A stretch of 64,000 bases of DNA from Escherichia coli (GTDB lineage Bacteria > Pseudomonadota > Gammaproteobacteria > Enterobacterales > Enterobacteriaceae): NCBI RefSeq assembly GCF_013122565.1, contig NZ_CP053258.1; one strand, given 5' to 3'. Below, piece after piece: positions 51,928 to 59,281 of the stretch (position 1 is the first letter of the stretch; each line of letters begins with the position of its first letter). The notes under the pieces were generated by a model that was not told where the DNA came from, did not search any database, and saw nothing but the letters and a program-made list of their open reading frames with translations. Made by a program: the position numbers and the translations under genes.

Positions 51928-53607
<1,680 letters not shown>

Positions 53608-53860
53608 TTATCGGGCTTTTCTTTAAGGGTAGTCATTCGCTCCGCCTGGTGGGCGACAAAGCGTGCGGTGGATCACGTTTATTAACCTGTCAAAAAATAT
53701 AACGCACTAATATCCATGGAATTTATAAAAATACAGATTTCGTGTTGTTTTTCATTTTCAGAACATTCAATCCTGCTCTCGCCGCAATCATGATATGCCA
53801 TTCCTGATCTGGGTAATAGGCACAGGCTATCTTATTGATAGTTTATATTCATGTAATTGA

Positions 53861-53874
53861 TTGATTCCTATCAA
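53861..53874. promoter_or_regulatory. FNR/CRP-type binding site (TTGAT-N4-ATCAA) upstream of yhjA
   Basis: Exact match ttgattcctatcaa about 108 bp upstream of yhjA ATG; yhjA is reported as FNR- and OxyR-dependent. Confidence 0.6.
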
Positions 53875-53981
53875 AAAGCGTATCTCCCTGTTTTTTATGA
53901 TGGCTTTGTCTCGCAGAGACGTTTGCAGCATTCTGGAAAATTTTCTGGGTCACAATAACTCACCACCGTGAGGGAAGAATA

Positions 53982-55379
53982 ATGAAAATGGTCTCACGTA
54001 TTACCGCGATCGGCCTGGCTGGCGTCGCGATTTGCTATTTAGGGTTATCTGGTTATGTGTGGTACCACGATAATAAACGTAGTAAACAGGCCGATGTTCA
54101 GGCATCTGCTGTCAGTGAAAATAATAAGGTTTTAGGCTTTCTCCGCGAAAAAGGATGCGACTATTGTCATACGCCTTCGGCAGAATTACCCGCCTATTAT
54201 TATATTCCTGGCGCGAAACAGTTGATGGATTACGACATAAAGCTTGGATATAAATCTTTTAACCTCGAGGCCGTGCGTGCGGCTCTGCTGGCTGATAAAC
54301 CCGTTTCGCAAAGCGATCTGAATAAGATTGAATGGGTGATGCAGTATGAAACTATGCCGCCAACGCGTTATACCGCGCTACACTGGGCGGGTAAGGTGAG
54401 TGATGAAGAGCGCGCGGAAATACTCGCCTGGATTGCAAAACAGCGCGCGGAATATTACGCCAGCAATGATACTGCTCCGGAGCATCGCAATGAACCGGTG
54501 CAGCCCATCCCGCAAAAACTGCCTACCGATGCGCAAAAAGTGGCGTTGGGCTTTGCGCTGTATCACGATCCCCGTTTATCGGCTGATAGCACCATTTCAT
54601 GCGCTCATTGCCATGCGTTGAATGCGGGGGGTGTCGATGGCAGAAAAACATCGATTGGTGTTGGTGGCGCAGTTGGGCCGATTAACGCGCCGACGGTATT
54701 TAACTCAGTATTTAACGTTGAGCAGTTCTGGGATGGTCGTGCGGCAACATTGCAGGATCAGGCTGGTGGACCGCCGTTGAACCCGATTGAAATGGCGTCG
54801 AAATCCTGGGACGAAATTATTGCTAAGCTGGAAAAAGATCCGCAGCTTAAAGCGCAGTTCCTCGAAGTCTATCCGCAAGGTTTCAGTGGCGAAAATATTA
54901 CTGATGCCATTGCTGAATTTGAGAAAACATTAATTACGCCGGATTCCCCATTTGATAAATGGTTACGTGGAGATGAGAATGCGCTGACGGCGCAACAGAA
55001 AAAAGGCTATCAATTATTTAAAGATAATAAATGTGCAACTTGTCATGGTGGAATTATTCTCGGCGGACGTTCCTTCGAACCGTTGGGGCTGAAAAAAGAC
55101 TTTAACTTTGGGGAAATTACGGCGGCGGATATTGGTCGTATGAATGTGACTAAAGAAGAGCGTGATAAATTGCGTCAGAAAGTACCCGGTTTACGTAACG
55201 TTGCTTTAACGGCACCGTACTTCCATCGCGGTGACGTGCCGACGCTGGACGGGGCGGTGAAACTGATGTTGCGCTATCAGGTAGGCAAAGAGCTGCCGCA
55301 GGAGGATGTGGATGATATCGTAGCTTTCCTGCACAGTCTGAACGGGGTGTACACGCCGTATATGCAGGATAAACAATAA
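53982..55379 (+). CDS. yhjA: Di-haem cytochrome c peroxidase
   Basis: 465 aa; multiple CxxCH haem motifs (CDYCH, CAHCH, CATCH); N-terminal TM anchor. Confidence 0.9.
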   Translation: MKMVSRITAIGLAGVAICYLGLSGYVWYHDNKRSKQADVQASAVSENNKVLGFLREKGCDYCHTPSAELPAYYYIPGAKQLMDYDIKLGYKSFNLEAVRAALLADKPVSQSDLNKIEWVMQYETMPPTRYTALHWAGKVSDEERAEILAWIAKQRAEYYASNDTAPEHRNEPVQPIPQKLPTDAQKVALGFALYHDPRLSADSTISCAHCHALNAGGVDGRKTSIGVGGAVGPINAPTVFNSVFNVEQFWDGRAATLQDQAGGPPLNPIEMASKSWDEIIAKLEKDPQLKAQFLEVYPQGFSGENITDAIAEFEKTLITPDSPFDKWLRGDENALTAQQKKGYQLFKDNKCATCHGGIILGGRSFEPLGLKKDFNFGEITAADIGRMNVTKEERDKLRQKVPGLRNVALTAPYFHRGDVPTLDGAVKLMLRYQVGKELPQEDVDDIVAFLHSLNGVYTPYMQDKQ

Positions 55380-55589
55380 TTAATTTGATCGCCCGAACAG
55401 GAATGTTTGGGCGATTTTTATTACGATAATAAAGTCTGTTTTTAATATTATCATGTTAAATGTTTATATTATAAAAAGTCGTTTTTCTGCTTAGGATTTT
55501 GTTATTTAAATTAAGCCTGTAATGCCTTGCTTCCATTGCGGATAAATCCTACTTTTTTATTGCCTTCAAATAAATTTAAGGAGTTCGAA

Positions 55590-56990
55590 ATGGACCAGAA
55601 GCTGTTAACGGATTTCCGCTCAGAACTACTCGATTCACGTTTTGGCGCAAAGGCCATTTCTACTATCGCGGAGTCAAAACGATTTCCGCTGCACGAAATG
55701 CGCGATGATGTCGCATTCCAGATTATCAATGATGAATTATATCTTGATGGCAACGCTCGTCAGAACCTGGCCACTTTCTGCCAGACCTGGGACGACGAAA
55801 ACGTCCATAAATTGATGGATTTGTCGATCAATAAAAACTGGATCGACAAAGAAGAATATCCGCAATCTGCAGCCATCGACCTGCGTTGCGTAAACATGGT
55901 TGCCGATCTGTGGCATGCGCCTGCGCCGAAAAATGGTCAGGCCGTTGGCACCAACACCATTGGTTCTTCCGAGGCCTGTATGCTTGGCGGGATGGCGATG
56001 AAATGGCGTTGGCGCAAGCGTATGGAAGCTGCAGGCAAACCAACGGATAAACCAAACCTGGTGTGCGGTCCGGTGCAAATCTGCTGGCATAAATTCGCCC
56101 GCTACTGGGATGTGGAGCTGCGTGAGATCCCTATGCGCCCCGGTCAGTTGTTTATGGACCCGAAACGCATGATTGAAGCCTGCGACGAAAACACCATCGG
56201 CGTGGTGCCGACTTTCGGCGTGACCTACACCGGTAACTATGAGTTCCCGCAACCGCTGCACGATGCGCTGGATAAATTCCAGGCCGACACCGGTATCGAC
56301 ATCGACATGCACATCGACGCCGCCAGCGGTGGCTTTCTGGCACCGTTCGTCGCCCCGGATATCGTCTGGGACTTCCGCCTGCCGCGTGTGAAATCGATCA
56401 GTGCTTCAGGCCACAAATTCGGTCTGGCTCCGCTGGGCTGCGGCTGGGTTATCTGGCGTGACGAAGAAGCGCTGCCGCAGGAACTGGTGTTCAACGTTGA
56501 CTACCTCGGTGGTCAGATTGGTACTTTCGCCATCAACTTCTCCCGCCCGGCGGGTCAGGTAATTGCACAGTACTATGAATTCCTGCGCCTCGGTCGTGAA
56601 GGCTATACCAAAGTACAGAACGCCTCTTACCAGGTTGCCGCTTATCTGGCGGATGAAATCGCCAAACTGGGGCCGTATGAGTTCATCTGTACTGGTCGCC
56701 CGGACGAAGGCATTCCGGCGGTTTGCTTCAAACTGAAAGATGGTGAAGATCCGGGATACACCCTGTACGACCTCTCTGAACGTCTGCGTCTGCGTGGCTG
56801 GCAGGTTCCGGCCTTCACTCTCGGCGGTGAAGCCACCGACATCGTGGTGATGCGCATTATGTGTCGTCGCGGCTTCGAAATGGACTTTGCTGAACTGTTG
56901 CTGGAAGACTACAAAGCCTCCCTGAAATATCTCAGCGATCACCCGAAACTGCAGGGTATTGCCCAGCAGAACAGCTTTAAACACACCTGA
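55590..56990 (+). CDS. gadA: Glutamate decarboxylase A
   Basis: 466 aa from ATG at 55590 ([22 protein letters not shown]...); PLP-lysine region [15 protein letters not shown]; ORF-track TTG start 55527 is an extension. Confidence 0.93.
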
Positions 56991-57007
56991 TAACATAACG
57001 TTGTAAA

Positions 57008-57057
57008 AACCGAATGCCCAGCCTTTAAAAAAACAGCTGGGCATTCGGTTGCTTATT
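57008..57057 (+). terminator. Rho-independent terminator after gadA
   Basis: Long stem aaccgaatgcccagc / gctgggcattcggtt followed by gcttatt. Confidence 0.75.
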
Positions 57058-57359
57058 AATCGCAATAATATATTGGCTGTCTATTCATCGTGTTAATAAG
57101 ATATATGCTATATGAATGTTTATTAAATGTAGCGATTATATGTAATGTCACGAAAAGGGATTATTTGCTTACTATTAATTTCCCTACGTTCTTAAACATG
57201 TTTTTTGTATTATAAATCCAGTCATCCTGCCCGTAGAACATCACACATTATCATCCTGTTCTCCCGCTTCGTTTAAATTTTTTATCAATCAATTTGACTT
57301 AAGAGGGCGGCGTGCTACATTAATAAACAGTAATATGTTTATGTAATATTAAGTCAACT

Positions 57360-58184
57360 ATGCAATCACTACATGGGAATTGTCTAATTGCGTACGCTAG
57401 ACATAAATATATTCTCACCATGGTTAATGGTGAATATCGCTATTTTAATGGCGGTGACCTGGTTTTTGCGGATGCAAGCCAAATTCGAGTAGATAAGTGT
57501 GTTGAAAATTTTGTATTAGTATCAAGGGATACACTTTCATTATTTCTCCCGATGCTCAAGGAGGAGGCATTAAATCTTCATGCACATAAAAAAGTTCTTT
57601 CATTACTCATTCATCACTGTAGCAGAGATATTCCTTTTTTTCAGGAAGTTGCGCAACTATCGCAGAATAAGAATCTTCGCTATGCAGAAATGTTACGTAA
57701 AAGAGCATTAATCTTTGCGTTGTTATCTGTTTTTCTTGAGGATGAGCACTTTATACCGCTGCTTCTGAACGTTTTACAACCGAACATGCGAACACGAGTT
57801 TGTACGGTTATCAATAATAATATCGCTCATGAGTGGACACTAGCTCGAATCGCCAGCGAGCTATTGATGAGTCCAAGCCTGTTAAAGAAAAAATTGCGCG
57901 AAGAAGAGACATCATATTCACAGTTGCTTACTGAGTGTAGAATGCAACGTGCTTTGCAACTTATTGTTATACATGGATTTTCAATTAAGCGAGTCGCAGT
58001 GTCCTGTGGATATCACAGCGTGTCGTATTTCATTTACGTCTTTCGAAATTATTATGGGATGACGCCCACAGAGTATCAGGAGCGATCGGCGCAGGGATTG
58101 TCGAACTGTGACTCGGCGGCAAGTATGGTTGCGCAAGGAAATTTTTACGGTATTGACTGTTCTGCGGAAGAAATAAGATTATAG
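57360..58184 (+). CDS. gadX: AraC-family acid-resistance regulator GadX
   Basis: 274 aa; C-terminal AraC-type HTH; matches remembered GadX. Confidence 0.92.
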   Translation: MQSLHGNCLIAYARHKYILTMVNGEYRYFNGGDLVFADASQIRVDKCVENFVLVSRDTLSLFLPMLKEEALNLHAHKKVLSLLIHHCSRDIPFFQEVAQLSQNKNLRYAEMLRKRALIFALLSVFLEDEHFIPLLLNVLQPNMRTRVCTVINNNIAHEWTLARIASELLMSPSLLKKKLREEETSYSQLLTECRMQRALQLIVIHGFSIKRVAVSCGYHSVSYFIYVFRNYYGMTPTEYQERSAQGLSNCDSAASMVAQGNFYGIDCSAEEIRL

Positions 58185-58200
58185 AGTTTTACTCAGGCAT

Positions 58201-58306
58201 AAAAAAAACCCGGCATAGGGGACCGGGAAGAGGATAGTCTGCCGTCTCCAGACTAATAAACCGTTATAACACTCCCTGTTGGCACGGGAAACTTTGTGCT
58301 CTCAGT
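58201..58306 (-). ncRNA. gadY: Small RNA GadY (antisense to gadX 3-prime UTR)
   Basis: Reverse complement of 58201-58306 reads actgagagcacaaagtttcccgtgccaacaggg...cccggtcccctatgccgggtttttttt, matching remembered GadY including its terminator. Confidence 0.8.
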
Positions 58307-58552
58307 AAGTTAAATATAACTTTTACTGGAAATAAGATCAGCCATTTTTTTATAAACATAAGCTATACGCTGTGTGAAAATATATTCTTATTGCATTTAC
58401 TAATTTTTAATCAACTGTTATGCAAAACTACTTTTTGGATAAATTTTGGTCCTACCAAATATGGCAGTTTTTGCACTAAGAAACAGTCTGGCATCATTTC
58501 ATTAGTATACTGAAATTGAAATAATCGCAGTAATGAAATATAAGGGATAATC

Positions 58553-59281
58553 ATGACTCATGTCTGCTCGGTGATCCTCGTTCGTCGTTCATTCGATATT
58601 TATCATGAACAGCAAAAAATATCGCTGCATAACGAGAGTATCCTGCTGCTGGAGAAAAATTTGGCAGACGATTTTGCGTTTTGTTCACCGGATACGCGAC
58701 GACTGGATATCGATGAGCTGACAGTTTGCCATTACTTACAAAATATTCGTCAGCTACCACGCAATTTAGGGTTACATAGCAAAGACCGTTTGTTAATTAA
58801 CCAGTCACCCCCCATGCCACTGGTGACGGCGATTTTTGATAGCTTCAATGAATCCGGGGTAAATTCACCGATACTGAGCAATATGCTCTACCTTTCCTGT
58901 TTATCGATGTTTTCTCATAAGAAAGAACTTATCCCCTTACTTTTCAATAGCATCAGCACTGTTTCAGGAAAAGTTGAACGCCTTATTAGCTTTGATATCG
59001 CTAAACGTTGGTATCTGCGCGATATCGCGGAAAGAATGTATACCAGCGAGAGTCTCATCAAAAAAAAGTTGCAGGATGAAAACACCTGTTTCAGTAAAAT
59101 ATTACTCGCCTCCAGGATGTCGATGGCCAGACGATTACTCGAGTTACGTCAAATTCCTCTGCATACTATTGCGGAAAAATGTGGCTATAGCAGTACATCG
59201 TACTTTATAAACACATTTCGACAATATTATGGTGTAACGCCACATCAGTTTGCGCAACATTCGCCAGGTACCTTTTCCTGA
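58553..59281 (+). CDS. gadW: AraC-family acid-resistance regulator GadW
   Basis: 242 aa; AraC-type HTH; matches remembered GadW. Confidence 0.92.
   Translation: MTHVCSVILVRRSFDIYHEQQKISLHNESILLLEKNLADDFAFCSPDTRRLDIDELTVCHYLQNIRQLPRNLGLHSKDRLLINQSPPMPLVTAIFDSFNESGVNSPILSNMLYLSCLSMFSHKKELIPLLFNSISTVSGKVERLISFDIAKRWYLRDIAERMYTSESLIKKKLQDENTCFSKILLASRMSMARRLLELRQIPLHTIAEKCGYSSTSYFINTFRQYYGVTPHQFAQHSPGTFS

Follow-up and report, generated by a model that had tools for sequence, protein, structure and literature searches.

The palindrome TTGATTCCTATCAA that lies upstream of ccp (yhjA) in Escherichia coli is, in our judgement almost certainly, the FNR operator of a class II, activator-dependent ccp promoter with an upstream OxyR co-activator, the two together making an AND gate. 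It occupies positions 53861-53874 of the window (i.e., the whole 64,000-nucleotide stretch of DNA that was analysed), is centred at 53867.5, carries no strand of its own, and matches the TTGAT-N4-ATCAA consensus at 10 of 10 positions. For this reading, the dependence on FNR and OxyR and the binding seen by ChIP-qPCR are drawn from the literature, and the start site and the protein contacts are predicted. The present analysis contributes the sequence itself, its conservation, the rigid OxyR-FNR spacing, a conserved -10 element and the linkage to ccp rather than to the divergent treF.

The mechanism that we propose runs as follows. When oxygen is lacking, dimeric [4Fe-4S] FNR would bind TTGAT-N4-ATCAA centred about 40.5-41.5 bp before the start, substitute for the missing -35 element and recruit RNA polymerase, presumably through the contacts to sigma-70 region 4 and alpha of the established class II mechanism. 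An OxyR tetramer at 53816-53852 (about -92 to -56), held in fixed register, would supply the hydrogen-peroxide signal. Such a promoter would be an AND gate, on when oxygen is absent and H2O2 present, and this behaviour is in keeping with Ccp serving as a respiratory reductase of H2O2.

The FNR box and its locus

The ccp gene encodes a tri-haem quinol/cytochrome c peroxidase of 465 aa and lies on the plus strand at 53982..55379, as an ATG-initiated ORF identified by its domains (Pfam CCP_MauG at 4e-57, Haem_bd and Cytochrom_C) and by RefSeq annotation. The last base of the box falls 108 positions 5' of the A of this ATG (53982), and the exact consensus match and the spacing of about 108 bp to the yhjA start, both claimed in the initial annotation, are thus borne out. 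A motif scan of the window recovered the perfect TTGATNNNNATCAA a single time, on the plus strand at 53861-53874. Measured against a chance expectation of 0.07 perfect boxes per window, and at least one match in 5 of 100 dinucleotide shuffles, a lone perfect box in 64 kb comes as only a mild surprise and is weak evidence by itself. As a perfect match does not guarantee function, we relied on comparative evidence.

The cytoplasmic trehalase gene treF (51928..53577, minus strand, from ORF and annotation) is the divergent neighbour of ccp and lies outside the regulatory module; the two genes have a 404-bp intergenic region in common. Scanning 53400-54200 against Rfam returned two sub-threshold chance hits, and no known RNA family was recognised in the intergenic region. 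On the other flank, the glutamate decarboxylase A gene gadA is situated just 3' of ccp (window 55590-56990). Its ORF as listed begins at an upstream TTG (55527), the annotated ATG being at 55590, and the spacer between ccp and gadA has a GC content of 28-35%.

The corresponding box of K-12 MG1655 (NC_000913.3) is found at 3669296-3669309, 5' of ccp/b3518 (3667791-3669188, minus strand), and the K-12 promoter is the same as that of the window over all 190 nt compared. This E. coli K-12 yhjA (ccp) promoter is also the one that Khademian and Imlay reportedly used in 2017. Myers et al. 2013 include the reverse complement of the box, TTGATAGGAATCAA, among the predicted FNR sites of their Table S6, with a PatSer score of 14.16 (PMC3688515).

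Conservation within and beyond E. coli

The region, with an annotated ccp and a divergent treF, was found in 5422 of 5426 complete E. coli genomes. An exact match of 28-30 nt spanning the box is present in 5392 of the 5426 (99.4% of the 5422 with the region), the 30-mer having been positioned so that every 28-nt exact word includes the entire box. The full exact 30-mer (53853-53882) matches just 3964 E. coli genomes, about 27% being without it; this lower figure comes from a G-to-A SNP, common in E. coli, at position 53880, six bases past the 3' end of the box and ahead of the -10 element.

A cross-species scan with one genome per species yielded 41 ccp loci. The box occurs in the ccp promoters of Escherichia, Citrobacter, Pluralibacter, Providencia, Trabulsiella, Entomohabitans, Hafnia, Enterobacillus, Yersinia and Buttiauxella, where it agrees with the consensus at 8-10 of the ten defined positions, in most cases at all ten, and starts 100-135 nt 5' of the ccp start, the exceptions being one MAG (-84) and P. 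heimbachae (-233). In the latter (L022) the OxyR-FNR module, itself intact, stands 233 nt before the matched start, and the leader is some 120 nt longer. In an ungapped alignment of 34 distinct ccp promoters on the box, the half-sites hold 1.94 and 1.74 bits per position, as against 0.73 bits for the N4 spacer. Constrained half-sites around a free spacer are the signature of an operator that protein would contact, and the conservation across genera puts the box far beyond chance.

The box is absent from the ccp homologues of Saezia and of Lachnospiraceae and Chloracidobacterium MAGs, and from the second Entomohabitans copy (L024), which is without the module altogether. Saezia sanguinis (L026), a betaproteobacterium, has a ccp that is 73% identical and from which the module is missing; it was probably acquired horizontally. 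No second upstream FNR site of the yfiD/ndh-like kind (at least 8 of 10 positions) was found within 450 nt upstream in E. coli E69.

These comparisons also bear on which of the two divergent genes the box belongs to. Only Escherichia and Citrobacter have treF next to ccp, whereas the OxyR-FNR-(-10) module holds its distance and orientation to ccp in every genus compared. Given that the module tracks ccp where treF is not a neighbour, we reject treF as the main regulated gene.

Promoter geometry and the OxyR motif

Reading on from the box, a candidate -10 hexamer, TATGAT, stands 21 nt past it on the plus strand (53896..53901). The -35 position, 17 bp 5' of this -10, reads AAAAAG (53873-53878), i.e., there is no recognisable -35 element, and a sigma-70 consensus scan gave no complete promoter on the plus strand. 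We take this negative scan as consistent with activator dependence and not as an argument against a promoter. An xAxxAT hexamer follows the box by 21-23 nt in 18 of 18 species, the gap being 22 nt in ten of them and 21 nt in six; E. albertii combines a box matching 9 of 10 positions with a gap of 23 nt. With the usual 7-8 nt from a -10 to the start, transcription would begin at 53908..53909 (plus strand), or about 3669262/3669261 in NC_000913.3, which places the box centre at -40.5 or -41.5. A class II FNR geometry is thus predicted, with the start inferred from the predicted -10. Partridge and colleagues are said to have mapped the start in 2007 and to have placed the FNR site near -40.5.

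Immediately 5' of the box, motif scan and conservation point to an OxyR-type motif, ATAGgcacaggCTAT-cttattg-ATAGtttatatTCAT, at 53816..53852 on the plus strand. Its ATAG-N7-CTAT-N7-ATAG core (53816-53841) is perfect, i.e., three of the four tetranucleotide elements are intact, and this three-element core is matched nowhere else in the window (0.07 matches expected). The fourth element is weak in E. coli (TCAT, a match at two of four positions) and reads CCAT in Citrobacter. Across genera the elements carry about 1.7 bits each, and the motif is present in all genera examined. The OxyR motif and the FNR box start exactly 45 nt apart in all but one of the 35 enterobacterial ccp promoters, the 34 being made up of 32 promoters from the spacing scan plus two (L023 and L033) for which the canonical boxes were used. 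The single exception, Providencia burhodogranariea (L017), has 56 nt, a shift of 11 bp, which is one helical turn. On the predicted start, OxyR would cover about -92 to -56 and adjoin FNR at about -47 to -34. What is new here is so in a small way: a phase-locked OxyR-FNR-(-10) module conserved in about ten genera, together with its natural +11 variant.

The leader of the ccp mRNA

Two small hairpins can be drawn in the 5' untranslated region. The first, GTCTCgcaGAGAC (53909..53921, plus strand, 5 bp), would begin at the predicted start of the ccp transcript. In this hairpin 89% of cells are paired, as compared with 23-47% when the partners are slid, and two of the five base pairs differ at both positions (UA replaced by CG) among Escherichia and Citrobacter. 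Similar hairpins occur in Hafnia, Trabulsiella, one Providencia and one MAG, and most Providencia species are without one; single-sequence z-scores across genera are weak (-3.9 to +0.8). Support for the 5'-terminal hairpin is limited to covariation within Escherichia and Citrobacter.

The second, CTCACcaccGTGAG (53959..53972, plus strand), has the form CTCAC-N4-GTGAG, and its 3' arm runs into the Shine-Dalgarno sequence. Its stems are invariant and so provide no covariation evidence. Between Escherichia and Citrobacter hardly any change is seen in the last 45 nt or so of the leader (53937-53981, TTTTCTGGGTCACAATAACTCACnACnGTGAGGG...), which are better conserved than the segment joining the FNR box to the -10 element, and this stretch could be an element of translational or sRNA control.

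Published regulation and discordant occupancy

The initial annotation had read the box as fitting the FNR-dependent anaerobic activation of yhjA, and half-site conservation, the class II-like geometry and the literature on yhjA all support this interpretation. The control of yhjA by FNR and OxyR was published in 2007 by Partridge, Poole and Green, and two articles that cite this work list FNR (in anaerobiosis) and OxyR as activators of yhjA (PMC4207228) and describe a double regulation by OxyR and FNR (PMC10301912). Binding of FNR in vivo was detected by ChIP-qPCR at yhjA and at treF (Lemmens et al. 2009, PMC2690998). FNR by itself does not suffice: a conserved OxyR motif adjoins its box. OxyR induces Ccp under hypoxic conditions, and ccp is included in a table of OxyR-induced genes (Sen and Imlay 2021, Table 1, PMC8115020); the induction of Ccp lets the respiratory chain take H2O2 as terminal oxidant (PMC8115020; also PMC12051229). 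The observation and its interpretation were correct, yet the site is the already known yhjA/ccp promoter. As a "precise site to test" it had been overtaken, the regulation having been published in 2007 and the 14-mer having already appeared in Table S6 of Myers 2013, and the questions that were proposed (start site, site mutations, fnr background) are already covered by the 2007 FNR/OxyR paper.

The genome-scale data of Myers 2013 (PMC3688515) are less uniform with respect to this promoter. The aerobic/anaerobic expression ratio of yhjA is 0.50, i.e., two-fold higher expression anaerobically (Table S12), and yhjA is not in the table of fnr-dependent operons. The site, labelled 'yhjA/treF' in Table S6, has no FNR ChIP-seq peak in anaerobic glucose minimal medium and overlaps H-NS and IHF enrichment (the latter by ChIP-chip). 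By our own count, 12 of the 21 perfect-consensus sites in Table S6 have an FNR ChIP-seq peak and nine do not, most of the nine lying within genes. The three silent intergenic perfect boxes (ftnB, yhjA/treF and yjhB) were all positive by ChIP-qPCR in Lemmens 2009 (PMC2690998). Myers et al. point to five silent sites for which there was prior evidence of regulation by FNR, yhjA not among them, and remark that ChIP-seq negatives can be false negatives (PMC3688515). In the available part of the Federowicz 2014 supplements there is no mention of yhjA, treF or b3518.

The nucleoid proteins can be placed relative to the box. The anaerobic H-NS region at U00096.2 3661953-3667384 (5431 bp; Table S3) and the IHF region at U00096.2 3667035-3667586 (Myers 2013, PMC3688515), mapped via the box, correspond to about 53809-59240 and 53607-54158 of the window, respectively, with a precision of some 7 bp that depends on whether the table coordinate denotes the centre or the edge of the site. 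At this precision of about 7 bp, the H-NS block over gadW, gadX, gadA and ccp ends a few bases 5' of the OxyR motif. The promoter region has a GC content of 34-41%, and the left FNR half-site shares bases with an IHF core, AATCAATCAATTA (WATCAANNNNTTR), at 53854-53866 of the minus strand. The window contains three such cores where 2.7 are expected, which equals chance, and the putative core at the box is only a lead. The simplest reading of the missing ChIP-seq peak is that the cultures were grown without H2O2, in which case OxyR would be inactive and the promoter idle. The lack of a peak in anaerobic medium without peroxide fits an AND gate requiring anoxia plus H2O2. The pointer to these discordant occupancy data is, again in a small way, new.

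Alternative explanations

The occupancy data also invite a refinement of the main model, in which the box is a conditional site: H-NS (as a filament from the gad island) and IHF would mask it during ordinary anaerobic growth, and oxidised OxyR would open access, its main part being that of an anti-silencer or access factor rather than of a further direct activator. The empty perfect box in anaerobic glucose medium without H2O2, its place at the edge of the 5431-bp H-NS region and inside the IHF region, the IHF core over its left half-site, the low GC (34-41%) and the rigid OxyR-FNR spacing all speak for masking, but FNR was found at yhjA in vivo by ChIP-qPCR (PMC2690998), the IHF cores are not above chance (3 against 2.7 expected), neither yhjA nor treF was found among the FNR peaks that Myers et al. 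tabulate as gained in the hns/stpA mutant, and the ChIP-seq negative may itself be false (PMC3688515). We therefore consider masking of this kind possible, though rather doubtful. Still more tentative is the further step that the OxyR-FNR composite is a phase-locked AND gate by way of access control, with H-NS and IHF keeping the box empty until oxidised OxyR admits FNR; we think this unlikely, and if it were true, an access-control AND gate, not only additive activation, would be hard-wired across Enterobacterales.

That the box also, or instead, serves the divergent treF appears improbable. Such a role would accord with the high-confidence DISTILLER prediction of treF as an FNR target and with the ChIP-qPCR binding (PMC2690998), as well as with the label 'yhjA/treF' in Myers et al. 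and with a two-fold O2-dependent change of treF that is seen only in the hns/stpA mutant (Table S11, PMC3688515). The box, however, starts 284 nt from the treF ATG (53577) and some 225 nt from the sole promoter-like site on the treF strand (53636-53607), ChIP-qPCR cannot resolve two genes that share a 404-bp intergenic region, and the module follows ccp in orientation and distance in genera without an adjacent treF. We regard as scarcely credible the idea that the box resembles the consensus by chance, or that a different protein of the CRP family, such as CRP itself, binds it in place of FNR. The nine of 21 perfect sites without an FNR peak in Table S6 (PMC3688515) speak for it, and against it stand half-site-specific conservation in about 10 genera, the fixed geometry with both the -10 element and the OxyR motif, in vivo binding (PMC2690998) and the published FNR dependence (PMC4207228, PMC10301912). 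The core of the box is, moreover, TTGAT with a 4-nt spacer. This is unlike the site of CRP, which is TGTGA-N6-TCACA. A class II FNR operator in an OxyR-coactivated ccp promoter thus remains the reading that we favour.

Under this favoured reading, the site restricts the synthesis of a periplasm-facing cytochrome c peroxidase to the only conditions in which the enzyme is of benefit, with no oxygen and with hydrogen peroxide as respiratory acceptor, which is established biology. The conflicting occupancy makes the promoter well suited to testing how access to a consensus operator may be gated by nucleoid proteins together with a second activator.

Comparison with known systems

The closest counterpart is the E. 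coli K-12 yhjA (ccp) promoter, which is the same locus with the same sequence and the same regulators, FNR and OxyR, and from which nothing here differs in kind. Among class II FNR promoters (narG, nirB, dmsA, yfiD and the FF-melR type), the likeness lies in a box 21-22 nt before the -10 element, a centre at about -41.5 (as predicted for ccp), a poor or absent -35 element and anaerobic activation. At narG and nirB the upstream place is held by NarL/NarP or IHF, whereas at ccp it is held by the OxyR motif, and in contrast to canonical class II promoters the ccp site was unoccupied in one genome-scale experiment without H2O2.

With the OxyR promoters oxyS, katG and ahpC (ATAGnt-N5-anCTAT-N7-ATAGnt-N5-anCTAT) the ccp promoter has in common four elements with 11-bp phasing, three of them perfect. 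At oxyS, katG and ahpC, OxyR abuts the -35 element and contacts polymerase directly. At ccp, the FNR box lies between the OxyR motif and the -10 element, and OxyR, judging from the sequence, would be one position further upstream. The silent FNR sites that are masked by H-NS, IHF or Fis (PMC3688515) offer a last comparison: they are mostly intragenic, whereas the ccp site lies between genes, its part in regulation is documented, and it is retained across genera.
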